Shown: positions 829 to 24,000, numbered from the stretch's first letter. The stretch: DNA of 24,000 bases from an uncultured Nitrososphaerota archaeon (GCA_963703285.1 OY969807.1:583577-607576), one strand, 5' to 3'. Numbers and translations are program-made. Notes: generated by a model not told the origin, from the letters alone.

Positions 829-1486
829 TTATGAAGCGGTCGTGCTTCACCCACTGCTTGTGGAATCCCTCGTCGAAAGACTGGTAACCCTGGAAGTAGC
901 CCTTCTCGTAGATCGCGTTCTGGGTTATGTCCTCAAGCACTTCGTTGATTATGTCGTCTGCCTCGCCCTGGAACGCAAGGTCGATGCCGAGCTCTTCCAT
1001 CACCTCCGGCATCACGGTCAGTTCCCAGACTCCGGGTCCGCCGACGACCACCTTGGCCTTCTTGCCCTTCCTGGCACGGTCGATCGTCTTCATCAGCCGC
1101 TCGAATTCGACCCTCACCCACGCCTTGGAGTGGTCGCCGAAGAGTATCGAGTAGGACATGGTCAGGGGGCCTAGACCCAGCGGGTCCATCGTGTAGACAC
1201 CGATTATCTCGGTGTCGTCCTTGATGAAGGAGGTCGCGTAGTCCTCGTGGGGGATGACCACTTCCTCTCTCTTGTGCTGCGCCAGGAGCGCGGACTCGAG
1301 CTTTCTAAGGGCGTATGGGGCGATTATGGCTCTACCGCTGTCGTCCGGCGTCCGTTTCCCCTTCAGAAAGTTGTAGAGAAACTCGGGGAGGGTTCCGCTC
1401 GGCGCACAGGGCAGAAAGTCGAGGAGTGGGAAGTTGTTGTACTCGCGGGAGAGGCTGGGATCCGAGATGAAGACGTATTTGGCCAT
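815..1486 (-). CDS. N-terminal (B12-binding-like / Rossmann-like) domain ORF of a radical SAM enzyme. It ends at TAA 815-817, just before the radical SAM core resumes in another frame.
   Basis: A 223-aa ORF with no CX3CX2C motif of its own. The stretch KAKVVVGGPGVWEL...QGEADD resembles the N-terminal domain of B12-binding-domain radical SAM proteins. The radical SAM core follows immediately in a different frame. Confidence 0.7.
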   Translation of the reverse strand: MAKYVFISDPSLSREYNNFPLLDFLPCAPSGTLPEFLYNFLKGKRTPDDSGRAIIAPYALRKLESALLAQHKREEVVIPHEDYATSFIKDDTEIIGVYTMDPLGLGPLTMSYSILFGDHSKAWVRVEFERLMKTIDRARKGKKAKVVVGGPGVWELTVMPEVMEELGIDLAFQGEADDIINEVLEDITQNAIYEKGYFQGYQSFDEGFHKQWVKHDRFITRHA

Positions 1487-1626
1487 CTGTCTATCTCGTC
1501 TCCACGCGCAGCGCCGAAGGAGACGCTGCGGCTATACCCAGGCTCAGCACGACCGTGTTGGATCCGTTCGCGTGCATGGGTTCGAGTCTCGGGCGACCGG
1601 TCCAGCTCAGGGTTGCCAACAGCGGT

Positions 1627-7551: not shown

Positions 7552-7759
7552 GTTACCTTCAACTATTCGGATTACGTCCAGTCGCTATAACACTATGCAC
7601 GCAAATTTTCTCAACTGCACGCAGCGCTGGGACTGCACTGGGCAGTCTCGAGTCAACCAGTCGGTTGCTGGAACCCAGTCACAAGCAAGCGATGTAGTGA
7701 CTTCTAGCCAAATCCCCCGAAGTCGAACCCTATTCAATCGCCTTAACCTAAGATTGCGA

Positions 7760-7882
7760 CTACGCGAAGTCGACTATCGCAAGTAGAACTATCGTGACGA
7801 CAAGAACCGCTGCCCCTATCGTTAGGTTTCTATTGATCCTCTCCAATCTGCGCACGTTCCCTTCCGCTGTGTCCATTCCCAT
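7760..7882 (-). CDS. Mini-protein (40 aa) with a single C-terminal TM helix
   Basis: Manual translation gives MGMDTAEGNVRRLERINRNLTIGAAVLVVTIVLLAIVDFA. A strong SD-like AGAGGTGA lies 7 nt upstream of the ATG. Its architecture matches the ORF immediately upstream. It is below the ORF-track size cutoff. Confidence 0.4.
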   Translation of the reverse strand: MGMDTAEGNVRRLERINRNLTIGAAVLVVTIVLLAIVDFA

Positions 7883-8368: not shown

Positions 8369-9502
8369 TCACATTGGATCGGATGCTCTCTGGTTGAGCA
8401 GGATCCTCGTGTCACCGACAAGGTTCATCAGATTGAGAGGCTTAAGGTCGTAGGCGTACGAGTACCCCCTGACGCACGTCCTAAGGCACATGTTGCAGTT
8501 CTCAGCTCTGGCCACGTGATTCCGGTAGAGGTCGCTCGAAAAATAGTCCTCGAAAGACCCCTTCTTGAGGTCGTAGCTGTGGTCGAAGGTGCAACTGTAA
8601 ATCTTCTTGTCGGGGGAGACGTAGACGAACATCTTCGGGAAGTGGCAAGTCCAGCTCCTTCCTTCGACGAAGTGCTTCAGCACGTATTCGGTCTCCAACA
8701 GAGGATACCCTTCTCGCTTCAGTCTGAGCAGAGTGACGTAGAAGTCGTGGAGCTGCGCTCCGCTGAGCCCCAAGCTTTCGTTACTTCTACCCATGTTGGG
8801 TAAATCTGTCGACTCGTCCGAGCCGAGGCCCGATGCGGGCTCTGGGAAACCGTAAGAGATGCCTGCGGGCTCTACGGTATTGTAGGATATGCCGACCCTC
8901 AGGTACCTCGCCAGCTTCGCCATCGGCTCCATCGCATCGAGATTGTATGTGCCGATGGTCGTCACCAGTATGACCCGAGTCTTACCCGCCTCCCTTATTC
9001 TGTTGATTCCCCTCATCGCGTCGTCAAATGAACCACGCCTCCCCCTGATAGTGTCGTGGTAATCATTGTAGTAGTCCAGCGAGACGAAAGCGAAATCGAG
9101 ATTACTCAGGGACGCGGCCTTGCTTGCGAGCAGCGAAGCGTTCGTGTTCATCGTCGTCAGGAAGCCCTTGTTCTTCGCATAATCCACGATCTTTCCGATG
9201 TCCTTCCTGATGAGCGGCTCACCGCCAAAGACGTAGTAAGCGCGCATGCCAAAATCGTACGCTTCATCGAGAAGCTGGTAGACCTCCTCGGTGGAAAGGT
9301 CCTCCTTCATCCTCGGAGTCAACTGCCAGTATGTACACATTCTGCACTTGGAGTTGCAACCGAACGTGATGGCGTGGGCTAGGAAGAAGGGCTTGTGAGT
9401 GTAGACCCTTGATTTCAGCAGCGAGAGAGAGGAGTCAAGATACCTGGCTGCGTCCCCCCTTGCTCCTCCTTGATTCCTCCCGGGCTTCATGGCGACCACC
9501 AT
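8369..9502 (-). CDS. Radical SAM protein with a Cys-rich (SPASM/twitch-like) C-terminal domain
   Basis: The N-terminal cluster motif is FGCNSKCRMCTYW (CX3CX2C). GGEPLIRKD is the SAM-binding GGE motif. The C-terminal cysteines are C..(17)..C and CNMCLRTC. This is the MoaA/NifB/PqqE-type fold family. Confidence 0.9.
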   Translation of the reverse strand: MVVAMKPGRNQGGARGDAARYLDSSLSLLKSRVYTHKPFFLAHAITFGCNSKCRMCTYWQLTPRMKEDLSTEEVYQLLDEAYDFGMRAYYVFGGEPLIRKDIGKIVDYAKNKGFLTTMNTNASLLASKAASLSNLDFAFVSLDYYNDYHDTIRGRRGSFDDAMRGINRIREAGKTRVILVTTIGTYNLDAMEPMAKLARYLRVGISYNTVEPAGISYGFPEPASGLGSDESTDLPNMGRSNESLGLSGAQLHDFYVTLLRLKREGYPLLETEYVLKHFVEGRSWTCHFPKMFVYVSPDKKIYSCTFDHSYDLKKGSFEDYFSSDLYRNHVARAENCNMCLRTCVRGYSYAYDLKPLNLMNLVGDTRILLNQRASDPM

Positions 9503-9532: not shown

Positions 9533-9870
9533 ACGGGAACGATTCTCAATCTCGGGAAAGATGTTGAGGGAAGTTTTCAGTGGTGCTGAAGACGGCTGGT
9601 CGATTCGACCACGAAAACAGCGACCCATAGGTCTCAGTTGAGGGCGGGCGCTCTTCACATGGCTCGATATCAGTCCACAACAGCGATTTAGTCTCCAATC
9701 TCTGCTGAAATCGCTTCGCAACGGAGAGTCTCGGATGGATGACCATCCCAGGCATTTTTCCAGCCTGTCCACGTAAGCGCAACTCCACAGAGGGTGGAAC
9801 TTGCCCAATGACCTCAAATCAACCTCCACCTCCCGCAAAAGCTTTAAGGAAGGGATTTAAACTCAGAGCT

Positions 9871-12152: not shown

Positions 12153-12306
12153 TGGCTCGTGCGCTTGTCGGCCTCGCTTTATCCGTTTGTTGCCAATACT
12201 TGCTGATTCACTCGCGCTTCTTGTCTATCCTGCGACGGAGGAGGCGTCGAAGCGCTCAGCTCTGCTCCTTTGCCTCGACTCGATTCGCGGGCAACACCCC
12301 AGACGC

Positions 12307-13545
12307 CTATGCAGCCTTGTACCTGAGCAAAGCAGCAAAACCGCCAAGAGCGTTGAGTTTTTCCTTCTCCTCGGACTCGGAAGAGATCACTTCAACCTTG
12401 GCATCGGTTGAGCTAGCGGCATCTTCCAAGACATCCACGATGTCTCTATCTTCCACCTCGTACTCTAGCCCATCGCACTTTCCGCATCGTACTGCCAGTT
12501 CCTGCTCGGTGGTTTCCATCTTCTCATCTTCATGCGCCAGTCGTGTTCTTGACTCCCCGCACTTTTTGCATGTCAGGATAATCTCGGTCAGGCCGGTGTT
12601 ATCCGCGACTAGAACGGTGTTTGCAACTCCATTCCTCACAGCGTCCAGCACCTTATCCAATCCCTGAATTGCCAACCCGTCTTCCTTGGCCATGTCTGCC
12701 TCCAGCCGTTGCAACAACTTGGCATCCTCAGCAGAATGAATCCTTTTCAGCGCCTCGGCTGATTTCTCAAGAGCTTCTTTCACCCCCTCTTTTCCTGAAA
12801 GCGCTGTGTTCACCTGGGGAAGAAGGATGTTCTTGAGCTCGTAGCGAAGGAAATCTTCTTTCAGAAAATCCTCCTTGGTAAAGCCCGGCCCTCCGACGAT
12901 CAGTGCCGTAACTCTTTGTTTTGTGATGAAGGCCTCCGTCGCGTAATCCGCGACCCTGTGAAAGTAATACGTGAGCTCCATGTCGCGCTCTCGCTCATAC
13001 CTTCTCTGGCTCCATCCGCCCTTGTCGGTCTTGCCAGGAATGCCGGAGGTGATGTGGTCAACTATGTCGAGTCTATCGCCGTTCAGGACACCAAATCCTG
13101 CCTCGTCAGCATCCATCGCGATTACTCCGACGACCCTTTCTTCTCGGAGCATCTTCCTGAGCGTCGCTAGATTGAAGTGATCGTCGATATCGAAAGTAAA
13201 CTCGGTTAGGGGTTCTGGCGGGATCAACACTTGAACCTCCGCGCCCTTTGCGCCTACATTGGCGGCAGCGAATATCGCGAGGCCATTGTCTGGAATCTCG
13301 CTTCGCGTCTTGAGAAGATGAATTATCTCCGAGAGTTCGTCTCGAACCTCTCGTCTTGCCTCTTGAGATTTGATTTCTGGAGAATCTAACCTTTCCTTGA
13401 GGAACGCATCCAATTCCTCAATCGTCTTACCCCTCGGTATGTAGAGCGATACAAGGTCTCTTGCCGTTCCCTCTTTGCTCGACAAGGAAGCCATGAGCTT
13501 CCTCATCTTGTACTGCTTTAGAGAATTCGTACTCGTTGCAAGCAA
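12307..13545 (-). CDS. aRF1/eRF1-family paralog with degenerate decoding and catalytic motifs
   Basis: The full three-domain aRF1 layout is recognisable: GTARDLVSLYIPRGK, VGVIAMDADEAGFGVL, LIVGGPGFTKEDF, the zinc ribbon CKKCG...CGKCDG and the C-terminal LGGFAALLRY. However, GGQ reads GGW (KGGWSQRRYER, 13012-13020), NIKS reads EIKS (13366-13377) and YxCxxxF reads FDIDDHF. Confidence 0.85.
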   Translation of the reverse strand: MLATSTNSLKQYKMRKLMASLSSKEGTARDLVSLYIPRGKTIEELDAFLKERLDSPEIKSQEARREVRDELSEIIHLLKTRSEIPDNGLAIFAAANVGAKGAEVQVLIPPEPLTEFTFDIDDHFNLATLRKMLREERVVGVIAMDADEAGFGVLNGDRLDIVDHITSGIPGKTDKGGWSQRRYERERDMELTYYFHRVADYATEAFITKQRVTALIVGGPGFTKEDFLKEDFLRYELKNILLPQVNTALSGKEGVKEALEKSAEALKRIHSAEDAKLLQRLEADMAKEDGLAIQGLDKVLDAVRNGVANTVLVADNTGLTEIILTCKKCGESRTRLAHEDEKMETTEQELAVRCGKCDGLEYEVEDRDIVDVLEDAASSTDAKVEVISSESEEKEKLNALGGFAALLRYKAA

Positions 13546-13657
13546 TCCCTCCAGTTAGCTCCACTCAAAGTGCATGTATCCTTTGCGCGCTCCTTCAAGC
13601 CTGTGCTTGGACTTGGACTCCGGCGTTCTAGCCCAGAGATTGTACATGGGCCCTCGT

Positions 13658-13763
13658 GCCGGGGGGGGTCAACAAGAATGGTCAACGTCGTGGGAATGAG
13701 GCGCCATCCGCCTCAGACCTCCCATCCCTTAGGGGTTCGTGGGTTCGAATCCCACCCCCCGCA
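13658..13763 (+). tRNA. tRNA-Leu (anticodon GAG) with a 17-nt intron at 37/38. The 3' two-thirds are canonical and the 5' third is aberrant.
   Basis: Hand fold. The anticodon stem is TGGGA (13691-95) / TCCCA (13720-24). The loop is A-U-GAG-G...C, with the intron CGCCATCCGCCTCAGAC at 13702-13718. Its GCCTCA segment pairs with U33-GAG-G37-C. The type II variable arm is TCCCTTAGGGGTTC. The T arm is a perfect GTGGG-TTCGAAT-CCCAC, and the acceptor 3' strand is CCCCCGC plus A. On the 5' side, GCCGGGGGGGGTC carries one extra nucleotide or a C3 mismatch, U8 is missing, and the D loop is over-long with a GGTCAAC direct repeat. Confidence 0.55.
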
Positions 13764-13840
13764 CTTATGTGGTACATATATTATGCCCCAGCGATATTTT
13801 TCCCACCATCTTTAACTAGTGGGACGACGCAAGGCTGAAT

Positions 13841-14089
13841 ATGAGCGAATTGGTTTCGATGGATAAGAAGGGCAGGCTTGTCTTGCCAAAAAAAGTCAGG
13901 ACAGAAGCGCGTATTGATGTCGATAGAAAGCTGGTTGCCAGAGTGATAGGCGTAGGACGCGTGGAGTTGTCCGATCCGGATGTCCTATCGACGAAGGCGC
14001 AAGAAATCGGGAAAAAGAAACTGGCAGGGTGGAGGGAAGAAAAGCACGAGTCAAGCAATTACCTCTACGAGTCGGCGAAAGGGAAATGA
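13841..14089 (+). CDS. vapB: AbrB/SpoVT-family antitoxin (VapB-like)
   Basis: MDKKGRLVLPKKVR is the SpoVT-AbrB swapped-hairpin signature. Its stop overlaps the PIN gene start (ATGA at 14086-14089). Confidence 0.85.
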   Translation: MSELVSMDKKGRLVLPKKVRTEARIDVDRKLVARVIGVGRVELSDPDVLSTKAQEIGKKKLAGWREEKHESSNYLYESAKGK

Positions 14090-14472
14090 GACTTATCGAC
14101 ACCGTCGTGCTGATTGGCTATCTTAACCCCCTGGACAAGGAGCACAGGCCATCAGTTGGACACCTTGAGAAAGTCAATTCAGATGAGGACGTTTTTGTTC
14201 CAAATCTCTCATTGGTAGAAGCTGATCTCGTCATGAAGATCCGAGGGTATTCTCACTCCGAGAGGGAAACCTCCTGGCGCGCGCTTGAAAGCAAGATTCC
14301 TCAATCGAAGATAATGGTGCACTCAGTGTCTTCGATTTACTCGGCATTGCAGCTCCAGGAACAAGGAATGGACTATTTCGACTCTCTCATCACATCACTC
14401 GCTCTGGAGACTAGCTCTATCGTAGTGACCACGGACAAACAAATTGGAACAGCGGTGAAGACGGAATGGTAA
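14086..14472 (+). CDS. vapC: PIN-domain toxin (VapC-like)
   Basis: MRLIDTVVLIGYL carries the first acidic residue. Further PIN acidic positions are in LVEADL, YFDSLITS and VVTTDKQ. The start chosen is ATG 14086 rather than the ORF-track 14029. Confidence 0.85.
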   Translation: MRLIDTVVLIGYLNPLDKEHRPSVGHLEKVNSDEDVFVPNLSLVEADLVMKIRGYSHSERETSWRALESKIPQSKIMVHSVSSIYSALQLQEQGMDYFDSLITSLALETSSIVVTTDKQIGTAVKTEW

Positions 14473-14506
14473 GGGAACCACCTCGGCGCATTGCCCCCTG
14501 ACGTCC

Positions 14507-14553
14507 AAGGGAACTGTCATGGGGTTCTCGTGTTCGAATCCCACCCCCCCGCA
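14507..14553 (+). repeat. Decayed copy of the tRNA-Leu 3' end (copy 2 of 4), not a functional tRNA
   Basis: The sequence is AAGGGAACTGTCATGGGGTTCTCGTG-TTCGAAT-CCCAC-CCCCCCGC-A. The T-loop, 3' T stem and acceptor 3' strand match the tRNA at 13744-13763. The 5' T-stem strand is TCGTG, which cannot pair, and there is no 5' half. Confidence 0.7.
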
Positions 14554-14724
14554 TCTTAATAGAGTTGAATCTTGCTCTGTTCATCATTTAAAGTTAGATT
14601 TGAGGGGCTTGTCAATGACTATAGAAGTTTGTTCGACCAGCTGCAAACCAGCTTGGCAGGCGGCTATCATGCACATGGGCGGTTATATCCTTCCTAAACT
14701 CGAAAATCAGATAGGTGCGCGAAG

Positions 14725-15129
14725 TTGGCAGAAGAGATCAAGTATCCCTCTATGGACCAGGTTTCGAGGCTCTATAATCGAACGATTGACGCGACAGGCG
14801 GTGAACGCGGATACCTCAGCAAGTCTAACCTGGACTACCTTTTGGACACGGTCCGAGATGTTGGGGAGAGGCTGCCGAGAAGACGGGCCATTCTGAAGAA
14901 GGCAGCGTTTTTACTGTACAACATAATTGTGATACACCCGTTCCTTAACGGCAACAAGCGAGCCGCTTATGGACTTGTGGAGCTATTCTTGAACTCTAAT
15001 GGCTACAAGGTTTCTCCCGAGACCAATGAGGCATACCTATTCCTCATTGAAGTTGCATCTGGGAAGATTTCAGAGAGCGAAGTCGAAACGTGGATAGCAA
15101 TGCATTTAACGGAGCTGACAGCAGAATGA
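14725..15129 (+). CDS. doc: Fic/Doc-family toxin (death-on-curing type)
   Basis: The Fic core motif is HPFLNGNKRAAY (HxFx[D/N]GNKR). The size is about 130 aa. The start is TTG 14725 or ATG 14752. Confidence 0.85.
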   Translation: MAEEIKYPSMDQVSRLYNRTIDATGGERGYLSKSNLDYLLDTVRDVGERLPRRRAILKKAAFLLYNIIVIHPFLNGNKRAAYGLVELFLNSNGYKVSPETNEAYLFLIEVASGKISESEVETWIAMHLTELTAE

Positions 15130-15136
15130 AGAGCAG

Positions 15137-15250
15137 ATGGCCCAGAAAGTGAGGACAGCGAAACAGATTACAGATAGAGATTTCGACAGACTAGCAGAAT
15201 TAGTCCTCGAAGAAAACAGCGAACTCTTCGAAATGCTGGCCAAGGTATAG
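15137..15250 (+). CDS. Candidate 37-aa ORF immediately downstream of Doc (possible cognate antitoxin)
   Basis: Manual translation gives MAQKVRTAKQITDRDFDRLAELVLEENSELFEMLAKV. It starts 8 nt after the Doc stop and is predicted helical and acidic. No Phd-like ORF lies upstream of Doc. Confidence 0.25.
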   Translation: MAQKVRTAKQITDRDFDRLAELVLEENSELFEMLAKV

Positions 15251-15325
15251 CTACGGTTCTCCCACGCCTTTGTGTAATGGTTGCTACCCAAGGGGTCGCC
15301 ATCTCGATGGGAACCCCCATCCAAT

Positions 15326-15374
15326 AAGGGAACTGTTGGGGGTACCTCGTGTTCGAATCCTACCCCCCGCACCA
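15326..15374 (+). repeat. Decayed copy of the tRNA-Leu 3' end (copy 3 of 4), with encoded CCA
   Basis: The sequence is AAGGGAACTGTTGGGGGTACCTCGTG-TTCGAAT-CCTAC-CCCCCGC-A-CCA. Its first 33 nt are identical to copy 4. Confidence 0.7.
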
Positions 15375-15430
15375 CTTGGTCTGAATTCGGCTTGTACTCG
15401 AATCTGGCGGCCCAGACAGCAGGTCGTAAC

Positions 15431-15462
15431 GTTTTTATCGATAGATATGATAAGATATCATA
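15431..15462 (+). promoter_or_regulatory. TATA-like box plus 7-bp inverted repeat (candidate RHH operator) upstream of the RHH-RelE pair
   Basis: GTTTTTATCG starts at 15431, about 30 nt before ATG 15467. TATGATA (15446-52), a 3-nt spacer and TATCATA (15456-62) form a perfect inverted repeat between the box and the start codon. Confidence 0.4.
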
Positions 15463-15466
15463 CGCT

Positions 15467-15835
15467 ATGGCGCAGATACTGGTTCGAGTAGATGAGGATT
15501 TGGCGAAGGAGGTTAGGAGGATGGTCAAGGAAAAATACGGGGGAAGAAGAGGTGGTCTGAGCCTGATCGTCGAGGAGGCGCTCCGGAATGCTGTTTCGCC
15601 TCCGGCTGAGATTTCATCGTCCACGCTCCTTGAGGTAATCGACTACGTTTCGAGAGCTTCCAGAGAAGGCCAGCCCAAGGATCAAATACTGACCAATGTC
15701 TTTCTCATGCTGGACCGGGAGTTCGAGCAGAGTATCATCAAGGGGCTAGAAGATCAAGGGAAGGGCAAATACAAGAGCGCCCCGAAGGGGGAAGACCCCG
15801 TCGAGTTTCTTCGGAAGTTGGCCCAGCGAGTATGA
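15467..15835 (+). CDS. Ribbon-helix-helix (CopG-like) antitoxin
   Basis: MAQILVRVDEDLAKEVRRMVKEKYG...LSLIVEEALRN is a typical RHH N-terminus. The start chosen is ATG 15467, because the ORF-track start at 15281 would run through the tRNA-like repeat. Confidence 0.8.
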   Translation: MAQILVRVDEDLAKEVRRMVKEKYGGRRGGLSLIVEEALRNAVSPPAEISSSTLLEVIDYVSRASREGQPKDQILTNVFLMLDREFEQSIIKGLEDQGKGKYKSAPKGEDPVEFLRKLAQRV

Positions 15836-15838
15836 GCT

Positions 15839-16117
15839 TTGCCAAGGCAGATTAGATACACGGACGAATTCGTGATTCGTTTCAAGGAGCTCTCGCGGGG
15901 ACAGCAGTCATTGGTGGAGGAGTCCGTAAGACGAATCCTCTCAGCTGATGATCCAACAGCATTTGCCCATCACTTGGAACGCAGGGCCTACTTCTGTAAC
16001 TGGAGTCACAGAGTGAGGAACAACTTGATAATCGTCTTCGGCTTATCAAAGATGACACTTACATTCCTGTCCACAGGAACTCATTCGCAAGCTTACCGGC
16101 CAAAACCATTAGCCTAG
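15839..16117 (+). CDS. RelE/ParE-superfamily toxin
   Basis: A 92-aa ORF starting 3 nt after the RHH stop. The pattern I.YT..F...F..L.......V...I..L...P......L.......W..RV....IIVF......L.FL..G.H..Y is typical of RelE/YoeB-like toxins. The start is TTG. Confidence 0.7.
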   Translation: MPRQIRYTDEFVIRFKELSRGQQSLVEESVRRILSADDPTAFAHHLERRAYFCNWSHRVRNNLIIVFGLSKMTLTFLSTGTHSQAYRPKPLA

Positions 16118-16183
16118 GAGTCCCCAGAGCTCAGGCAATCGTTGGACTTGAGCCCCCCTAACCTGCTGCGACCCCTGACACCG

Positions 16184-16231
16184 AAGGGAACTGTTGGGGG
16201 TACCTCGTGTTCGAATGCCCTCCCTTCCGTA
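16184..16231 (+). repeat. Decayed copy of the tRNA-Leu 3' end (copy 4 of 4, most degenerate)
   Basis: The sequence is AAGGGAACTGTTGGGGGTACCTCGTG-TTCGAAT-GCCCTCCCTTCCGTA. The 33-mer is identical to copy 3, and the tail keeps only about 10 of 13 matches to CCCACCCCCCGCA. Confidence 0.65.
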
Positions 16232-16417
16232 CAAACGGCTAGGAGATTCTAACGGTCGCATGCAGCGTAGAGTGTGGAGCAGAACCCTCCGGCGGAACTG
16301 GCTTACAGTGACACAATCTGCCAAGTCTGAAAACCTGTCAATACGTCACTGTAATCACAGCTCATGGTCAGGGTTGCCAAAAGGGTGCTGCGCGGTAAGA
16401 CTTTCGCCCAGGCGATT

Positions 16418-16439
16418 CCTACCTCTCGGTAGGATAAAG
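16418..16439 (+). promoter_or_regulatory. Perfect 6-bp hairpin/inverted repeat abutting a TATA-like ATAAAG upstream of the second AbrB-PIN pair
   Basis: CCTACC-TCTC-GGTAGG lies at 16418-16433, followed by ATAAAG at 16434-16439. ATG 16471 is 32 nt downstream. Confidence 0.35.
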
Positions 16440-16470
16440 TTCAAATGTGAGTTCATACCTCCTTCCTCAC

Positions 16471-16731
16471 ATGTCAGCCAAGCGAACCGTGGGAGCGAAG
16501 GGCCAGGTTGTAATCCCCAAGGACATGCGAGACCAGCTTGGGATCTCTCCTGGTTCAGAGATAGTCTTCGACCTCAGGGACGATAAGATTACGATCCGAC
16601 CCGGGAGGGACCCGGCGAGCGAGGTCGAGGCGTACCTCTCGGTGATAAAGGACAAACTGAAGAAAGAGGTCGACCTAAAGAAGATCATCGAAGAGGAGTC
16701 GTTTGTCGCGAATGATCTACCTGGACAGTAG
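16471..16731 (+). CDS. vapB: AbrB/SpoVT-family antitoxin (VapB-like)
   Basis: MSAKRTVGAKGQVVIPKDMRDQLGISPGSEIVF is an SpoVT-AbrB domain. It overlaps the following PIN gene by 20 nt. Confidence 0.85.
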   Translation: MSAKRTVGAKGQVVIPKDMRDQLGISPGSEIVFDLRDDKITIRPGRDPASEVEAYLSVIKDKLKKEVDLKKIIEEESFVANDLPGQ

Positions 16732-17119
16732 CATCTTCCTTTCCGCGGCTCTCTACGATCCAAAAGCTTCGGCATCCGCAAGTAGAGCCAGGGCGGCCCT
16801 CAAGCGACTCCCCAGCGGGGAGATTGAAGCCTGCACGGCGACGCTCACCTGGGACGAGGTTGTCTGGACCGTTCGAAGGCTCGTCGGCGCAAAGGAGGCT
16901 CTCGACCAGGGAAGGGCCCTCCTACGCCTCCCCCGGCTCAGGCTCCTCTCGGTGGACTCGGATGCCCTCGCGAGAGCCCAGGAAATCGCGGAGGAGGACC
17001 ACCTCAAGCCCAGGGACGCGATACACGCCGCAGTCGCCTTGAACAACGGCGTCAGGGACTTCATGAGCTTCGACGGCGAATTCTCCGATGTCAGGGGCGT
17101 CAGGAGAATTGAGCCGTAA
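16712..17119 (+). CDS. vapC: PIN-domain toxin (VapC-like)
   Basis: The PIN acidic positions are in MIYLDSSIFL, TWDEV, PRDAIHAAVA and SFDGEF. The start chosen is ATG 16712. Confidence 0.85.
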   Translation: MIYLDSSIFLSAALYDPKASASASRARAALKRLPSGEIEACTATLTWDEVVWTVRRLVGAKEALDQGRALLRLPRLRLLSVDSDALARAQEIAEEDHLKPRDAIHAAVALNNGVRDFMSFDGEFSDVRGVRRIEP

Positions 17120-17213: not shown

Positions 17214-17795
17214 ATGAAGACAGCGAAAGTCGCAGCAATCGGCGCAGCCTCCATCTTCGCGGTGGTAGCGCTGCTCCTCGCAGTCCCGGCAATGGCAGCC
17301 ACGCAGAACACATCCCTGATAGCCAACACATCCACCACGGGCGCGACCACCTCGGTGGTCCCCGCCCCGACGACCCTCTCGCCCGGTCAGACCATAACCT
17401 TCACCAGCACCACAGGTGCCTGGAAGGTCATAGCGTCCCCGTCCGCGGTCGAGAAGGTCAAGTCAGGTCCGGCGTCCGGCACGATGACCCTCACCGTGAC
17501 AGGCGCCTACAAGGGCGGGTACGCCCTCTCCCTGACGTCGGGCTCCGTCTCAATCAACGGGACGACCTACGCCTTCGGACCCGGCTCGGCTGAGATGGGC
17601 CCGCACCAGGCTCACCTGGTCGGCCAGGGCACCCTCGCCACAACCACCGCCTCCGCCACCCGAGGCTCGTTCCTCTTCGCGGCTGGCGCGCACGCCAACT
17701 TCCAGGGGTCGACCTACAACACACTGCGCCTAGACGTACAAGTGAACGGACAGGAGTACGGCGTCCTCCTCTTGGTGACCGCAACGGTCTCCTAG
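17214..17795 (+). CDS. Secreted Thr/Ser/Gly-rich beta-type protein with a Sec signal peptide
   Basis: The N-terminus MKTAKVAAIGAASIFAVVALLLAVPAMA-ATQ is a signal peptide with an AxA cleavage site. The mature part has low complexity and is T/S/G-rich. No family recognised. Confidence 0.7.
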   Translation: MKTAKVAAIGAASIFAVVALLLAVPAMAATQNTSLIANTSTTGATTSVVPAPTTLSPGQTITFTSTTGAWKVIASPSAVEKVKSGPASGTMTLTVTGAYKGGYALSLTSGSVSINGTTYAFGPGSAEMGPHQAHLVGQGTLATTTASATRGSFLFAAGAHANFQGSTYNTLRLDVQVNGQEYGVLLLVTATVS

Positions 17796-17822
17796 GGGAC
17801 GCCCCTCCTTCCTCCCCTTTTT
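17795..17822 (+). terminator. Short GC hairpin plus T5 run
   Basis: GGGG-ACG-CCCC at 17795-17805 is followed by a pyrimidine tract ending in TTTTT (17818-17822), directly after the stop codon. Confidence 0.35.
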
Positions 17823-17932
17823 GTGATGAAATACCAGTGCTCTCAAGGCTATAGACACGCGAGATGCGCCACCGGACGCGAATCCAATGGCGACTTCGAT
17901 GGTCTGGAAACCGGCGGAGCGCGTCGGCTGCC

Positions 17933-20243
17933 CTAGGAAAGCGGCGCCGTGAACGAGCGCGAGAACGTCAGCCCTATCGCCGTGGTAACGGTGACCGTGT
18001 AGATCTGCCCCGGGATCCAGTCGAAGGACTCCGCCATGATTATCTTCTGCCCGGGGCTGAAGTAGAAGTTGGAAGCGAAGTTGGAGGTCGAGCGCGGCGC
18101 CAGGCCCCGTTATCACCAGCGAGAGCAGCTTGATGTCCGTGTTGCTTAGGTTCTTGAGTTCCACGACGGCCCTGGTCTCGTTGAAGGTCTGGATGACGGC
18201 GTAGATGGAGACCTTGACGGTGTAGGGCGTGAGCGGCTCCGTGCAGGCGTACGCAGGCGCGGGGCAGGCGGACGACGTGGCGTTTATCCTGATGTTCAGG
18301 TCCCCAGTCTCAGGCACCCCGACCTTCGTGTAGGTCGTCGAGTTGACGTAATACGCGGCCTGTGGAAGGGGTATGACGGTGTCTATCACGCTGGCGTTGG
18401 TGGTCGAGGCGGACCCGAACTGCGCCCAGAGCACGGGGTTGTAGACGAAACGCGAGTTGTCCGAGACGAACGCGTAGATCGTCGTGTTCTGGGGCGCGCT
18501 CGTCATGTTGACACCGAGCTCGAGCCCCTGTACCTGGTTGTAGCTCAGCCCGGTCGGAAGCTCGAAGGTCTGCGACCCGTAGTAGGTCGCGGGGTCCGGC
18601 TTCAGAGCTAGCCCCACGTTGTCTAGGTAGACCGACAGGGCGGGAGGATAGCCCGCCGACTCGGGGAACTGGCCCGGAACCGTCATCGCCACAGATATCG
18701 TGAGGGTGTAGGTGCCCGCGTACCATCCTCCTCCCGCGGTGGTCCACGACACGGGCGGGATGAAGCAGGCGTCGCTCGTGACCCACCCGGAGGGCCCGAA
18801 GTCGTTCTGGACGGTGGGGTTCACGTAGTAATAGTCGCTGGGGCTCGCGCCGCACGAGGTCCCGCCAATCGGAAGTTCGATCGTTCCCTTCGGTCCCTGG
18901 AGGTAGACCTGGTAGAGGACGAGGGAGTCGCGGGGGGCGTTGATCGACGCCATGTCGCTGTCCCAAGTCAGCGTGCAGCACTTGGACCCGGCGATGTTGG
19001 CCGCCGTCGCCTGGTCGAGATAGAAGGACGTGGTGAAGTCCGCGGTGCTCGTGAGCTGCTGGCCGTCCGAAATCGGCACCGAGTTGAACGATGGCTCGAA
19101 GGTCGCATACAGGCTCCCCGGCGCGCTCTCCGAGGACGCAACGAGCGTGTTGCTGTCGTAGCCCGCGGACATCCCGCTGGGGGTGAGGGGCTGCGACGGG
19201 GCCGGGTTGATGGCGGCGATGGACGTTCCCGGCCCGAGCGCAACGATGATGAAGTTATCGTTTCCCGTTGGGGTTGGAGCGGGGTTGAACGCCGAGCCGG
19301 TCGTTATCGTCATTCCGCCGTTGCCGATGATCTCCAGACTTTGGCCCATCGCTGGTCCTGAGGTGTACTGAAGGAAGTCACCAAACCACTGGGCCGCCGT
19401 CCAAGTTGCTGCTGCGTCAGTTAGAATCGTGGGCGAAGCTGCCGTCGTGGTACCACTGAAGAGGGGGGAAGCCACCGTGGCGTTGACAGTTGCTATGGCC
19501 GTGTCGGTGAACGGGAGCATGCTGTTCTTCAGCCAAGACACGACGACGGTCATGTAGAACGTCCCGTGGGCATTTGGAACGCTCGCGGACCAGTCGAATG
19601 TCTGACTCCCACCGTTCGGCCCTATTTCGAAGGGAAGGCTCGAGAGCCACGTGATGTTATTGCCCGTTACGTTCGGCGGGCCGGTCGCGAGGAACGTGGA
19701 GCCCCAGTTCACGGTCGTCGGTTGCGGGACCGGGACCGTCCACTGCGAGTCCACAAGGAGCGAGACCTTAGCGATCCCGTACGGCGAGCCGAGCGGATCA
19801 CCATTCGTCACGGTTAGCGTAAACGGGACTGTGGAGGGCGAAGAGGAGGAGGGGTAGATGTTCTGCGGGCTCGTCTGGACAGAGCCGGTGTCGCTCACTG
19901 GAGTGTAGCTGCGCGACGTCGTCCATCCGTCCATGTTCGACGTGAAGTTCATGTTGCTGATGGGCAGGATCGGGTTCTGCTGGTTGTTCTGGCTCAGCGT
20001 GACGGAGCCGGTCGTCGCGTAGTTGAACGAGCTGTACGAAGTCAAACCGCCGAACACGATGTCCTGTACGCCAACCGCCTGCGCCTGGGCGCTGAGCGTG
20101 CTCGCGTTGGACGTGTGCTGACCGTCCACGTAGCTGTTGAAGGTCCCGAACATCGTCGCGAGGGCGCCGACCATCAGCACGACTATCAGGATGAAGAAGA
20201 CCGCGCCGACGATGTTGGCTATCCCTGATCTTCTCGCTCTCAT
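17933..20243 (-). CDS. Large extracellular protein with an archaeal type IV pilin-like (class III signal) N-terminus. The reading frame is interrupted near 18085-18109.
   Basis: The start chosen is ATG 20243 (MRARRSGIANIVGAVFFILIVVLMVGALATMF), 2 nt after the upstream gene's stop. The body is T/S/N/P-rich. After ...LVITGPGAA the ORF-track frame decays into Arg/His/Leu-rich sequence and overlaps the convergent gene. A one-base shift gives STSNFASNFYFSPGQKIIMAESFDWIPGQIYTVTVTTAIGLTFSRSFTAPLS, stopping at 17933-17935. Confidence 0.75.
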
Positions 20244-20245
20244 TC

Positions 20246-21127
20246 TCAAATCGCCGCGAGGTATCCGGTGAAGTACAGCAACAGCAGCACGGCGAGCGGC
20301 ACGAAGACCACGGCCCAAAGGACTTTGTTCCACCTTAAGACCTTAGCCCCGTCCAGGGGCATCACGGGAAGCATGTTGAAAGCCCCCAGGAAGACGTTGA
20401 AGTACGAGCCGAGGAAGCCGGCGAGGAAGAGATAGGGGTTGTTCAGGTCCAGCCCGACCACATACAACGGCACGAAGAGGACCGCGATGATGACGTTGGT
20501 AAGCGGACCGGCGAATGAGATTATCCCGTTCTCCTTGGTCCTTATGCCGTAACCTTCTATGTAGGTAGCCCCCGGCGCGGCGAATACGAAGCCGGTGAAT
20601 GTCGAGATGACGAGCGCAAGCACAAGGCCCTGTGGCCACATCCGGAACTCCGCCTGGAATCCGTATCTCTGCGAAGTAAACTTGTGCATCAGCTCATGCA
20701 GTACGAACCCCGCGCCTACAGTCCCGAGCGCCATCACGAGCACCAGAGCTGTGGGTATGACCGTATGCGGCGAATTGGGGGCGCAGGTCAGAGCGACCGG
20801 GTTGCAGACGCCAATGACGTAGGCAAAGCCTTGGATGAGACCCCCGGTTTCTGCAATCGTGAACGCGGTCCCCAGGGCCAGCCATGCGATGATGATGTCC
20901 CTCACCTCGTGGCGCGTGAATGACATGGATATCGGCCTCCGGCCCGCTGAGACCGCGGCGTCGCTCCACGAGAAGGTGGAGGCGGTCGTCTCGGCCACCG
21001 GCCTACGGGAGAGGTCTCCGGTGCACCTGTGCGACTCGGGGAGCCTGTGTTCCCCGCAGAACACGCCGCCGCAGTAGTTGCAGACGAAGGGCAGGGACTC
21101 CTCCTTGCCGCAGTACTGACAGTTCAA
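20246..21127 (-). CDS. AN1-type zinc finger fused to an M50 (site-2 protease-like) membrane metalloprotease
   Basis: The N-terminus CQYCGKEESLPFVCNYCGGVFCGEHRLPESHRC matches the AN1 Cys/His pattern. The HExxH motif is in a TM helix (FVLHELMHKF), and the second M50 motif is FNMLPVMPLDG. There are multiple TM segments. The start is TTG. Confidence 0.85.
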   Translation of the reverse strand: MNCQYCGKEESLPFVCNYCGGVFCGEHRLPESHRCTGDLSRRPVAETTASTFSWSDAAVSAGRRPISMSFTRHEVRDIIIAWLALGTAFTIAETGGLIQGFAYVIGVCNPVALTCAPNSPHTVIPTALVLVMALGTVGAGFVLHELMHKFTSQRYGFQAEFRMWPQGLVLALVISTFTGFVFAAPGATYIEGYGIRTKENGIISFAGPLTNVIIAVLFVPLYVVGLDLNNPYLFLAGFLGSYFNVFLGAFNMLPVMPLDGAKVLRWNKVLWAVVFVPLAVLLLLYFTGYLAAI

Positions 21128-21172: not shown

Positions 21173-24000
21173 CTAGATGACGCAGAACTTCACTGCGTAC
21201 TGTGCGCCCGATGTCTGGACCCATGTGAGCCCCACAGTGTTCCCTGAGTATGATATCGTCACGCCGCCAACGAGGCCCGACACTCCCGGAACCTCGACGG
21301 CCTGGGACCACGACACTGCGTAGTTCGGTGCCGCGCCCACTGTGCCCACCTGGAACGCGAGCTGGTCGTCGATGCCGTACGCGACGTAGAGGCTGCTCCC
21401 TCCGAACGCCATGGAGATGTGCCACGAGTGGTTGACCACGGCGTTGGCCGGGATCACGGAGATCGAGAGTGCGGTGGGAGCCGAGAAGCATCCGCCGTTG
21501 GTCCCTGAGTAGCCCGCGGGGCAGGCTCCTCCGGCTGGGTTGTAGTTGAATGTGTAGAACTGGACGTCAGCCGAGCCTCCCGCGGCAGTCGCCAGGCCTG
21601 CGAAGAAGACCACGTCCGTTCCCGCTACCGGCATCACCACGCCCTGCTGCTGTTGGGTGTAGATCTGGACGCCGGACCAGCTCGCGGGGAGGTCGCTGCA
21701 GAAGCCGGACGCGAGGCTGCCGCCGAGGCAGTAGGTGTTGGACATCGTGTACCCGTGGTCGAAGACCGTTATGTGCGGATACTGGGGCGTGTTACCGACC
21801 GTGAAGGTCGCGGCGACGGCATCAGGCATCACGTAGAGCTCTGAGTGGACCTGGGAGTCGGGGCCGGTGTAGACCGCGTGCAGCTGGACGTCGCCAATCC
21901 CGCCTATAGCTGCCGGAATCTTCCAAGTCGTGAGCGTGAGCTGCCCTACCTCGACGTGCCACATCAGGTTGGAGTCGAGAGCGGGGATTGTGACCCAGAT
22001 GCATCCCTCACCCGGGGAGACCGTCAGACACTGCGCCGACGAGTCGACGTAGATGTTGGGTGACCCGGCCGTGGTGAGACCCGGCGCCGTGTGCACCATC
22101 AGCATCTGGACAGGGCCGAGGCCGCAGTTGCCTGAGCACGCGGTCCACGAGATGGACGCGCCGCCAGCGTTGGCCACGACGGTACCGGAGGCAAAGTAGA
22201 AGCCGCCCGTGAACGAGGGTGAGAGCAGCACTAGGTAGACGTTGTTGTTGTAGTTGGCGACGGCGAAGGAGTACCCCTGGTCGATGCCGTTGACGATCTC
22301 CGTGGCCGGCCCCCACGAGTTGCCGGTGTTGTCCGTGCTCGCGCGGTAGACCAGGTTGGTCCCGTCCGAGTACACCACGAACCAGTGGTTGTCGGCGAAG
22401 AAGAGGGCGTTCTGGCTCCCGTAGGTTATCGCGTAGGCGCTCGTCGTGAACCCGATGGTGGTCACGCTCGGCGAGATGATGGTCAGCTGGTATGTTGAGC
22501 TCGACTGCAACCCGTCAGAGTCTGTCGCGGTCACCGTCCACGTGTAGACACCGAAGGGCGCGTTGGGCGCTATCGTAATCAGCATCGTCGAGGAGGCCCC
22601 GCTGGCGCTCGCCGGGAAGCCATTTGAGGTGTAGATGAGCGTCACTCCTGAAGGCAGGGCGCTGTTTGACAGCGTGATGACGCCGCTGCCACCCGTCGCG
22701 GTTATTGAGCAGCCCACCTGAGTTCCGACTCCCGCCGTCTCGGGCGTGCAGACGCTTATGGAGAGCGGTACAAGGAAGTTCGCGGTCGCGGTCTCAGGTC
22801 CGTTCATGGTGATCTGGATCGAGGGAGAGTCGCACGAAGGTGCGCAGGACCACCCTGACCAGTCTTCGAAGACCGCTCCGGGGGAGGTTGCGGTCGCCGT
22901 CAGGGTCGGGATCGTCCCCCCGAAGTACCACCCGGGCGACGCGCCGGCGCTGCTGGGGGGGGCGGCCGCGACCGTGCCCGCCGAGATCGGGTTAATCACC
23001 ACCGTCAGGAGGTACTGTACCTCGAATGGCACTGTGACTGTGGCCGAGGGGTCCGCGGCCGACAGGGTTACCGGTGTGGGGACAGGGCCCGTGTAGGCGT
23101 ACTGCGTCCCCGCAGGCAGCCATGCCTGCGGCGATGGGACGGTGTAGGTGTAGGACCCCACCGGAGCTGAGCTTATCACTATGTCCTGTGAAGTGCTCGA
23201 ACACGTGTAGGTGGTTCCCGAGTCGAGGACGCACCCGGAGGATCCCGGATTCGGTATCGCTGACGGGGCGGTAACCTGCACGGACCACGAGGGCCCAATC
23301 AGATTCATGCCTGTCTCGACGAATGCGAGTCCCGTGACCAGCGTGAAGCTGGCCGTTATGGTCCCGGTCCCGCTTATGACCGCGGTCGTGCTCGAGGACC
23401 CGGGCACTTCTATCAGGATGCTCCCGGTTTCACTCCACCCTCCGAAGCTGTAGCCGCCGATCCAGTTCCCGATGATGCTCACGCCGGGGAGACCCGCTGC
23501 CTCCCAGACCGGGGTTGCAAAGGGCACGGCCATGCCGCCGGCCGTTATCGAGCCCGTCCCCACGGGCGAGACCACGAAGGTCACCTGGAACTGGTGGTTG
23601 TAGACTATCGGGTCGGTGACCTCGTTGCTCTCGTAGATCGAGGGCCAGGAGCTTAAGCCGGGCTGAACCGTCCACTGCTCCGTGGGGAACGCACCGAGTA
23701 TAGGATCGTTCACGAAGACCTGCTTCGTGGCGTCCAGCCAGACGACGTTGGCCGTGAGGTTCAGGAGGTGGGCCTTGTCGACGCCGAGCGAGTAGTAGTT
23801 TATCGTCACGCTGCTGGGGGCACCGTGGATCGCGCTGCCGTCGGAAGTTTCGTACACGAGCGTCTGTTGGAACTGGTGGTACCATACTATCGACGGGTTC
23901 GTAACGATGTTGGTGGCCGTGATGGTCCAGGATGCGGTTGGCGTGTACCAGCGCTCTCCCGAACCGCCGACGTAGGTCTGGGTCACGCTTGCCGTGGTGC
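21173..24000 (-). CDS. Very large secreted/surface protein (over 940 aa, 5' end outside the window) with InlB-B-repeat-like modules and a C-terminal BNR/Asp-box-containing beta-rich region
   Basis: The frame is open through 24000; the ORF-track start at 23986 is an internal GTG. Repeated modules follow the pattern Y.L/V.V...P...G.......Y..G....L.A.....F..WSG.......T...TA.F, for example QYLLTVVINPISAGTV...FEDWSGW...ATANF and QFQVTFVVSPVGTGSI...FGGWSETG...ITASF. An Asp-box-like STDNTGNSWGP is also present. Confidence 0.8.
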   Translation of the reverse strand, partial: TTASVTQTYVGGSGERWYTPTASWTITATNIVTNPSIVWYHQFQQTLVYETSDGSAIHGAPSSVTINYYSLGVDKAHLLNLTANVVWLDATKQVFVNDPILGAFPTEQWTVQPGLSSWPSIYESNEVTDPIVYNHQFQVTFVVSPVGTGSITAGGMAVPFATPVWEAAGLPGVSIIGNWIGGYSFGGWSETGSILIEVPGSSSTTAVISGTGTITASFTLVTGLAFVETGMNLIGPSWSVQVTAPSAIPNPGSSGCVLDSGTTYTCSSTSQDIVISSAPVGSYTYTVPSPQAWLPAGTQYAYTGPVPTPVTLSAADPSATVTVPFEVQYLLTVVINPISAGTVAAAPPSSAGASPGWYFGGTIPTLTATATSPGAVFEDWSGWSCAPSCDSPSIQITMNGPETATANFLVPLSISVCTPETAGVGTQVGCSITATGGSGVITLSNSALPSGVTLIYTSNGFPASASGASSTMLITIAPNAPFGVYTWTVTATDSDGLQSSSTYQLTIISPSVTTIGFTTSAYAITYGSQNALFFADNHWFVVYSDGTNLVYRASTDNTGNSWGPATEIVNGIDQGYSFAVANYNNNVYLVLLSPSFTGGFYFASGTVVANAGGASISWTACSGNCGLGPVQMLMVHTAPGLTTAGSPNIYVDSSAQCLTVSPGEGCIWVTIPALDSNLMWHVEVGQLTLTTWKIPAAIGGIGDVQLHAVYTGPDSQVHSELYVMPDAVAATFTVGNTPQYPHITVFDHGYTMSNTYCLGGSLASGFCSDLPASWSGVQIYTQQQQGVVMPVAGTDVVFFAGLATAAGGSADVQFYTFNYNPAGGACPAGYSGTNGGCFSAPTALSISVIPANAVVNHSWHISMAFGGSSLYVAYGIDDQLAFQVGTVGAAPNYAVSWSQAVEVPGVSGLVGGVTISYSGNTVGLTWVQTSGAQYAVKFCVI

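Follow-up and report, generated by a model that had tools for sequence, protein, structure and literature searches.

Toxin-antitoxin cassettes stacked behind a tRNA-Leu gene in an uncultured Nitrososphaerota archaeon: a probable array of small, integrase-less integrative units

The segment of tRNA genes that runs from the T-loop to the 3' end is a standard crossover sublocation for tRNA-targeting integrases. A survey of Thaumarchaeota found integrated elements as small as 2.6 kb, all of which encode an integrase (PMC6563490). Firmicutes harbor cis-mobilizable elements (CIMEs), defined as decay products of ICEs (integrative and conjugative elements) or IMEs (integrative and mobilizable elements) (PMC5704250), and in Prochlorococcus, tRNA islands with partial-tRNA scars form through successive integration of tycheposons (bioRxiv 10.1101/2020.12.28.424599). 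Cassettes ending in attC sites characterize integrons, including chromosomal integrons with toxin-antitoxin (TA) cassettes and the integrons of archaeal metagenome-assembled genomes (MAGs) (PMC9668308). Here, we analyze a 24,000-nucleotide stretch of DNA from an uncultured Nitrososphaerota archaeon (GCA_963703285.1 OY969807.1:583577-607576; hereafter, the window), in which three TA modules lie downstream of a tRNA-Leu(GAG)-like gene, each followed by a repeat that ends in a copy of the tRNA 3' end.

The interpretation that we favor, with moderate confidence, is that this array is a stack of ~0.8-kb non-autonomous integrative cassettes that accreted serially at the 3' end of tRNA-Leu(GAG) through the action of a trans-acting integrase. 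Each cassette consists of an apparent AT-rich leader, a two-gene TA module, and its own attachment (att) site, namely, a GC-clamped hairpin followed by a spacer and a mimic of the tRNA from the T-loop to the 3' end. A tyrosine integrase encoded elsewhere would recombine this site with the T-loop/acceptor segment of the tRNA, and crossover inside a 20-nt core would yield the order tRNA, core, leader, genes, hairpin arm, core, and older material. In the process, the tRNA 3' end would be rebuilt from cassette sequence, and the displaced copy of the tRNA end, now behind the hairpin arm of the cassette, would mark the distal cassette end. Later arrivals would shift older cassettes outward, and the TA module would make cassette loss difficult. 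We infer that the cassettes are excised as circles, that an integrase, in this case one of the Leu family, serves them in trans, and that the crossover lies in the 20-nt core, and we likewise infer what the hairpin does; the sequences themselves show the anatomy, the repeats, the return of the cassettes, with these boundaries, behind different tRNAs and in different orders, and, at one of these tRNAs, an integrase-bearing element that is present at one locus and absent from another. The predicted crossover product matches the observed layout exactly. Such a crossover would explain why the functional-looking T stem GTGGG remains with the tRNA and why the displaced copies all carry TCGTG and the hairpin, which are element sequence and not decayed tRNA.

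What sets the array apart from ordinary tandem integration of prophages or plasmids is the unit itself, a two-gene, recombinase-less segment of 0.8-1.1 kb with an att site matched to the local tRNA. Because such a unit recurs behind three tRNAs with matched att sites, we read it as non-autonomous and served by an integrase in trans. The archaeal elements with gene capture and tandem tRNA integration (PMC8371274; PMC6563490) use the same type of target, are bounded by direct repeats of the 3' part of the tRNA, and occur in hosts of the same phylum. However, they are at least 2.6 kb in size and encode an integrase, whereas the units described here, 0.8-1.1 kb, have neither a recombinase nor split int halves. 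With tycheposons, the array shares serial integration at one tRNA that pushes older material outward, but tycheposons are 10-20 kb elements with their own recombinase and replication modules, whose remnants lack clear boundaries, in contrast to the minimal, sharply bounded units in the window.

The tRNA-Leu gene and the junction repeats

The presumed attachment target is a tRNA-Leu(GAG)-like gene on the plus strand (13662-13763) with an aberrant 5' third. It contains a 17-nt intron at the canonical position 37/38 (13702-13718), and removal of CGCCATCCGCCTCAGAC restores the anticodon arm TGGGA-AUGAGGC-TCCCA. ARAGORN called no tRNA at 13662-13763 with the intron option on or off, and the score of the Rfam tRNA model was 22.1 bits against a gathering score of 29; when the intron was removed and the threshold lowered, ARAGORN called Leu(GAG), with the acceptor starting at 13662. 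Its anticodon, variable, and T arms are free of defects, but G2.G71 is a mismatch and the D stem has just two pairs. Intact orthologues that share its anticodon arm, variable arm, T arm, and acceptor occur at two related loci, L040 (41.7 bits, with a 17-nt intron in the same position) and L039 (50.3 bits, no intron); therefore, judging by its sequence, the resident gene is degraded or, at the least, aberrant. The original prediction, a note made on this DNA from the sequence alone, called this gene tRNA-Leu, placed its start at 13658, and did not see the aberrance.

Downstream of this gene, three ~67-nt repeats on the same strand, at 14490-14557, 15309-15375, and 16167-16233 (copies 2, 3, and 4, respectively), each close one cassette. 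Every copy consists of a GC-clamped hairpin with the loop AAGGGAAC, a spacer, GGGGTTCTCGTG or GGGTACCTCGTG, and the core TTCGAATCC(C/T)ACCCCCCGCA, ~20 nt that match the T-loop-to-discriminator part of the tRNA exactly. This core of identity, TTCGAATCCCACCCCCCGCA, occupies 13744-13763 in the tRNA and is common to the tRNA and the cassette sites; it starts again at 14533 and 15352 and, in degenerate form, at 16210. In copy 2, the hairpin spans approximately 14495-14529 and the core 14533-14553; in copy 3, the hairpin spans approximately 15314-15348 and the core 15352-15371, followed by CCA; and in copy 4, the degenerate core spans 16210-16231. Counted between successive T-loops, the distances come to 789, 819, and 858 bp, which corrects a first interval previously given as 782 bp and leaves the other two unchanged. 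The 25-base degenerate pattern GGGAACTGTNNNGGGNNNCTCGTGTTCGAAT matched without mismatches at 14509, 15328, and 16186, with 0.00 matches expected from 100 shuffles. A junction covariance model built from ten family members scored 79.1, 78.9, and 64.6 bits for copies 2, 3, and 4 (E values 1e-24 to 1e-19); elsewhere in the window, this model detected only the 3' end of the tRNA itself (32 bits).

As already reported in the original prediction, copy 2 matches the exact 33-mer common to copies 3 and 4 at 27 of 33 positions, and in all three, the 5' strand of the T stem reads TCGTG and not GTGGG. The 5' half is missing in every copy, and neither ARAGORN nor Rfam matched any of them (14490-14557, 15309-15375, and 16167-16233) as a tRNA at any threshold, in agreement with the earlier assertion that these are not tRNAs. 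We also considered 3' halves of split tRNAs and intron-bearing tRNAs and rejected both, given that no complementary 5' half or acceptor strand is present upstream and that the T stem is replaced. The hairpin followed by the segment TCTCGTG recurs in independent metagenomes, at loci L018, L021, and L040 (in three copies at the latter), and diverged forms are present at L039 and L024. These recurrences support the earlier proposal that the repeats are att sites and that the 26 nt not derived from the tRNA belong to a shared site, and the sequence data support assignment of the repeats to the class of att sites that use the T-loop-to-3'-end block of tRNAs.

By sequence, the 25-35 nt that directly follow the core on its 3' side sort into three families (CCA..ACTKG, YCTWAATAGAG, and CYWATRTGG) and contain TCGAAT-like half-sites that may be additional, putative binding sites. 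The presence of CCA after copy 3 and of CTT after the tRNA is as originally observed; the origin of copy 3 from a foreign tRNA-Leu gene that had been suggested on this basis is not needed, because this 3' sequence varies, and the intact tRNAs of L040 and L039 are themselves directly followed by CCA and a similar segment.

The hairpin raises the question of function at the RNA level. Among ten related sequences, the hairpin columns were paired in 84% of the cells compared with 39-58% for slid partners, and two pairs showed compensatory changes, with a covariation score that was reached by 5 of 500 shuffles. In the window, the partly covarying hairpin and a 3' part resembling an acceptor and T-loop invariably follow the TA genes closely on the sense strand. 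This would suit a tRNA-like minihelix that ends the TA transcripts and serves as a processing or stability signal (for RNase P or Z or the CCA-adding enzyme), in which case the repeats would owe their place between operons to this function and not to DNA recombination. We nevertheless regard this explanation as highly improbable. The T stem is destroyed in all copies, single-sequence folding mostly gave energies no better than those of shuffled sequences (z from -0.25 to -2.15), and one of the L040 cassettes points in the direction opposite to that of its junction, so that the element there is not a 3' untranslated region. A signal in the transcript also does not account for the cassette-sized presence/absence and order changes described below.

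Related cassettes at other tRNA genes

The informative loci were obtained by locating genes for homologues of the cassette proteins; in addition, a junction scan of the JGI metagenomes yielded two true copies, at L018 and L021. One counterpart of the array is L040 (4.5 kb), in which the intact tRNA-Leu(GAG) is followed by a cassette of 1118 bp encoding a ribbon-helix-helix (RHH) protein and a 127-aa protein, an AbrB-PIN cassette of 788 bp, an inverted PIN-MazE cassette of 1107 bp, and the start of a further cassette. Every junction in this locus consists of the same hairpin, TCTC(G/A)TG, and the core. The AbrB-PIN cassette of L040 and the first cassette of the window are about 85% identical in nucleotide sequence from core to core, with 84-85% amino acid identity, and the inverted PIN-MazE cassette shows 36-42% amino acid identity to the fourth TA module of the window. 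Thus, by sequence comparison, the AbrB-PIN cassette is first in the window and second in L040, with different companions.

The Doc cassette, in which the gene for the Doc/Fic toxin is followed by a 37-aa open reading frame (ORF), is found in four lineages and behind three different tRNAs, Leu(GAG) in L039, Leu(TAG) in L024, and Ile(GAT) in L025, and is closed in each case by a copy of the local tRNA 3' end. In L039, the order is intact tRNA-Leu(GAG), the Doc cassette, and a displaced copy with a diverged hairpin. In L024, tRNA-Leu(TAG) (7692-7843) is followed by the Doc cassette, a displaced copy, a cassette with a helix-turn-helix protein and a 126-aa protein, and a third copy (9622-9685) that did not enter model building and scored 24 bits. 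The tRNA-Leu(TAG) gene contains a 57-nt intron right after TTCGAAT in the T-loop, inside the att core, and the displaced copy downstream of Doc (8650-8768) carries a homologous 53-nt insert in the same position. At loci L025 to L030, the tRNA in front of the Doc cassette is tRNA-Ile(GAT), which contains an intron, and pieces of the end of this tRNA reappear in the distal junction of the cassette. Between L025 and L026, which stem from different samples, identity is 99.5% over a stretch of exactly 1102 bp that begins at the T-loop and stops at the distal junction, and the genes beyond are unrelated; at L028 and L029, the junction that precedes the Doc cassette is 91% identical to the one behind it. 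The tRNA-Ile(GAT) gene of L025 (7570-7662) has ~19 extra nucleotides in the D-loop, so that Rfam aligns only 7597-7662, and the tRNA of L004 (1445-1556) contains a 42-nt intron and is called as Lys(TTT) by ARAGORN only with the intron option; both genes are missed or shortened by standard tRNA finders.

Since relatives carry the cassettes in other orders and at other tRNAs, we read the cassettes as small mobile units, which are probably not decayed leftovers. The original prediction had left two readings open, cassette accretion and repeated integration of larger elements that were whittled down. The comparative data favor the former: the same minimal cassettes occur in different genomes in new orders and with new neighbors, and no integrase fragments are present. 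None of the outcomes that the original prediction named as contradicting it was observed: the repeat flanks variable gene content elsewhere, the locus varies among relatives, and no covariance model scores the copies as tRNAs.

Under the latter reading, a form of gene capture, three or four full-size elements with their own integrases would have entered serially and each been deleted down to an addiction module with attL and attR remnants. This has precedents: tandem tRNA integration with later integrase loss is documented for archaeal elements (PMC8371274; PMC6563490), bacterial CIMEs arise in this manner by definition (PMC5704250), and a full-size, integrase-bearing element does sit at tRNA-Ile beside the Doc cassette in L027. 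We consider this scenario unlikely all the same, because it is improbable that independent deletions would arrive at identical end points time after time. The same minimal units occur in independent genomes, such as the AbrB-PIN cassettes of 789 and 788 bp and the Doc cassettes of the four lineages at the three tRNAs; the hairpin arm starts ~20-70 nt past the last stop codon in every cassette; and no fragments of integrases or other element genes were detected in the cassette intervals of the window.

Comparison with CIMEs leads to a similar assessment. Like CIMEs and other tandem accretions at tRNA att sites in Firmicutes (PMC5704250), the cassettes are bounded by attL and attR sites in which the 3' end of the target gene is repeated, lack integration and transfer genes of their own, and have tandem neighbors, and an integrase-bearing element can adjoin them, as in L027. 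CIMEs, however, are heterogeneous decay products, whereas the cassettes described here are uniform sub-kilobase TA modules that are found in this same form in several genomes, each with a conserved hairpin arm of its own; their hosts are archaea, and their mobilization is putative. Given that a CIME, strictly, is a decay product, and that instead of remnants of ICEs or IMEs we found identical minimal units in several genomes, the cassettes are not strict CIMEs.

The element in L027 bears on the source of the recombinase. L027 corresponds to L025 with an insert of 6.76 kb, absent from L025, between tRNA-Ile and a displaced 23-bp copy of the tRNA end, immediately upstream of the Doc cassette. 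The first gene of the insert, adjacent to the tRNA, encodes a 450-aa protein that matched PHROG_1 "integrase" with an E value of 7e-6 and in which, by eye, box I (SVRPEVV) and box II (PYILRRYF...WMGH...HVY) of tyrosine recombinases can be discerned; searches of Pfam, NCBIfam, and PDB sequences did not recognize it. The insert is, therefore, a probable integrase-bearing element, as judged from its sequence. An SSV-type split integrase was considered for L027 and rejected because joining the ends gave no ORF through att and the integrase ORF is intact. The arrival of an enzyme-bearing element at the very site beside the Doc cassette is circumstantial support for mobilization of the cassettes in trans.

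The array also invites comparison with integrons. Like the cassettes of integrons, including chromosomal-integron TA cassettes and those of archaeal MAG integrons (PMC9668308), its units hold one or two genes and end in a structured site, stack in a single orientation at a fixed entry point, prominently include TA modules, and vary in order among relatives, with variable order and content apparent between the window and L040 and between L025 and L026, L028, and L029. Unlike integrons, the array has no adjoining IntI and no attI: no recombinase domain was detected in the sizeable ORFs of the window, and none was called beside the arrays of L024, L039, and L040. The sites contain a hairpin, but lack the R''/L''-L'/R' anatomy and the GTTRRRY core of attC, and by inspection, no RYYYAAC...GTTRRRY pair is present. 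Furthermore, the entry point here is a tRNA 3' end that the site mimics, and the cassettes appear to carry AT-rich leaders. The array is not an integron, and the earlier description of it as integron-like holds by functional analogy only.

Several observations on these and other loci concern assembly and cargo. Homologues of Doc and PIN are often found on contigs of 0.6-3 kb, and one such contig, L001 (Logan ERR10755947, 1620 bp), is identical to positions 13736-15355 of the window, with both ends inside the repeated T-loop. The short contigs and the ends of L001 form the pattern expected of repeat-bounded units, and the repeat-bounded cassettes appear to fragment short-read assemblies. At L018, the genes that precede the junction (450-2083, minus strand) encode a zinc-type alcohol dehydrogenase, a small membrane protein, and a PNPOx-like protein, with no TA pair; the cargo tied to this att site may extend beyond TA modules. 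In L041 (4424-7540) and L042, from two Nitrososphaerota MAGs (GCA_027322035.1 and GCA_029786265.1), an AbrB-PIN homologue with 65% identity belongs to a three-cassette array that consists of a pair of 136- and 128-aa proteins, AbrB-PIN, and a 71-aa ORF with HicA-HicB. The separators in this array are a different repeat of ~100 nt, with starts at 4424, 5529, 6387, and 7438, that is not obviously tRNA-like, and Rfam found no tRNA at the locus; this repeat may represent a second kind of cassette junction.

Gene content of the cassettes and the setting of the array

Each of the three repeat-bounded intervals contains a single two-gene module and no integration or transfer genes, which upholds the original count of one TA module per interval. 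Cassette 1 (13764-14553, plus strand) encodes an AbrB/MraZ-like antitoxin (13841-14089) and a PIN toxin (14086-14472; 31.1 bits in Pfam, with a cut-off of 23.6). Cassette 2 (14554-15371, plus strand) encodes the Doc/Fic toxin (14725-15129; 38.9 bits for Pfam Fic, above the cut-off) and the 37-aa ORF (15137-15250). ORFs of 37-40 aa, 59-76% conserved, lie directly 3' of Doc at every Doc locus examined (8413-8526 in L024, 7411-7524 in L039, and 8417-8539 in L025), which identifies this ORF as a real partner gene downstream of the toxin. It has no match in Pfam or PADLOC. The sequence suggests that the Doc cassette is a toxin-first module with a very small partner protein.

Cassette 3 (15372-16231, plus strand) encodes an RHH-like protein (15467-15835) and a possible RelE/YafQ-like toxin (15839-16117). 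Both Pfam matches, RHH_6 and YafQ, are weak and sub-threshold, each with an E value of 0.007. The first protein is predicted to have a beta-alpha-alpha N-terminus resembling RHH; the second one (92 aa) gave a poor structural model (pLDDT 61), and a fold search with it returned no significant match. The RelE label, as originally assigned to this cassette, is tentative. Beyond the last junction, a fourth module (16471-17119, plus strand) consists of MazE/AbrB (16471-16731; 55.3 bits) and PIN (16703-17119; 66.1 bits), as identified with Pfam. The existence of this module was predicted correctly, but as a fourth cassette it differs from the others: the covariance model scan found no fifth junction after it, and its GC content of about 60% is host-like. 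Adjacent or overlapping genes for a small antitoxin and a toxin with recognized domains, the hallmark of type II TA systems, are present in the PIN, Doc/Fic, and MazE-PIN modules.

GC content is 49-52% over 13.5-16.5 kb of the window, which covers the three cassettes, compared with about 60-65% in the distal flank. The window is archaeal, with an aRF1 gene on the minus strand (12307-13494), and homologues of the cassette PIN proteins carry the source names Nitrososphaerota, Thaumarchaeota, and Conexivisphaerales. In the closest relative found, L002 (aRF1 89% identical), the segment shared with the window comprises only aRF1 and a short upstream region (12306-13608 in the window, 4714-6016 in L002), and both flanks are unrelated; gene order around the aRF1 locus is, thus, not conserved even among close relatives. 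Distal to the array, three large, GC-rich ORFs (17214-17795, 17730-20333, and 21173-23986; 193, 867, and 937 aa) encode Ser/Thr/Ala-rich proteins with nearly no Pfam matches (one InlB B-repeat), one of which has a signal-peptide-like start. Judging from composition, these are probably surface proteins.

Mode of accretion and its implications

Copy 4 (16167-16233) is chimeric: the left strand of its hairpin, CCCCTGACAC, is of the class seen in copy 2, L021, and L040, whereas the next 33 nt are identical to copy 3, a member of the other repeat class. This patch is bounded on both sides, ending at the conserved loop and at TTCGAAT, so that a simple increase of decay with distance from the tRNA, as originally proposed, does not describe copy 4. 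By its sequence, the patch looks like the product of a short gene conversion or recombination event or of integration beside an already degenerate site.

Such a patch is what would be seen if the TA modules formed old, fixed chromosomal islands in which cassettes are exchanged by homologous recombination over 55-75-nt repeats, without a dedicated recombinase. The independence of the sequence families 3' of the core from the downstream genes and the failure to find a Leu-family integrase are compatible with this possibility as well. We deem it improbable because it leaves unexplained why the repeat mirrors the local tRNA end (that of Leu-GAG, of Leu-TAG including its T-loop intron, and of Ile), why the array starts exactly at the tRNA, and why an integrase-bearing element is cleanly inserted, with 23-bp flanks, at the same kind of site in L027.

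Serial accretion of cassettes through an integrase in trans, the interpretation that we prefer, has to contend with several observations that weigh against it. Simple sequential insertion does not predict copy 4, for which gene conversion or secondary-site integration must be invoked, and the core of this copy, TTCGAATGCCCTCCCTTCCGTA, is far more diverged than the perfect 33-mer that precedes it. Of the families 3' of the core, the first two do not co-segregate with downstream genes; therefore, exchange extends beyond the core, and part of the shuffling could be due to homologous recombination between the repeats. No Leu-family integrase was found in searches of the window, L018, L021, L024, L039, and L040, and TA cassettes were seen neither as circles nor in an empty-site form. 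Scanning the GTDB species genomes and IMG/VR added no further junction copies. The statistics of the hairpin are drawn from just 10 related sequences. Finally, with its damaged 5' third, the resident tRNA is degraded, and this particular array may be a fossil that is no longer an active target.

The individual searches were as follows. In GTDB, a collection that does not include the source genome, the pattern GGAACTGTN{5,12}TCGTGTTCGAAT produced seven matches, all of which are lone bacterial sites without extended similarity and were dismissed as chance. In IMG/VR, two junction patterns, a tRNA-Leu 3'-end pattern, and a protein scan with the L027 integrase returned nothing. Within the 24-kb window, Pfam searches of about 38 ORFs and tblastn with the L027 integrase detected no integrase or transposase, in line with the reported absence of mobile-element genes from the array. 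Split int(N) and int(C) halves were not found either, and the window has no long ORF through or abutting the junctions. Because the L027 protein itself was not recognized by the Pfam, NCBIfam, and PDB sequence searches, divergent integrases encoded elsewhere could have been missed.

A broader proposal, which we advance tentatively and consider possible although short of an even chance, is that these loci belong to an undescribed cassette-capture system of Nitrososphaerota-type archaea. In such a system, sub-kilobase modules, mostly TA but with other cargo as well, would carry hairpin-plus-tRNA-mimic att sites tuned to Leu-GAG, Leu-TAG, or Ile-GAT and would be inserted, excised, and reshuffled at tRNA 3' ends by trans-acting tyrosine integrases of co-resident integrative elements, forming an integron-like platform without a dedicated integrase. 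A full-text literature search, necessarily incomplete, found no account of archaeal tRNA genes with arrays of TA cassettes that are below 1 kb in size, have no integrase, and carry a hairpin-plus-tRNA-mimic site.

On the practical side, short-read assemblies are broken up by repeat-bounded cassettes, and tRNA and island finders miss such arrays. The intron inside the att core of L024 and its copy in the displaced fragment bear on the long-standing link of archaeal tRNA introns and tRNA gene disruption to integration. If mobilization in trans is real, the cassettes would be smaller than any integrative unit noted in archaea to date (compared with 2.6 kb; PMC6563490), and their att sites would provide a concrete set against which to test candidate integrases. 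Integron-style accretion could then build on ordinary tRNA-targeting integrases, which would account for the spread and accumulation of TA modules beside tRNA genes in soil and sediment archaea.

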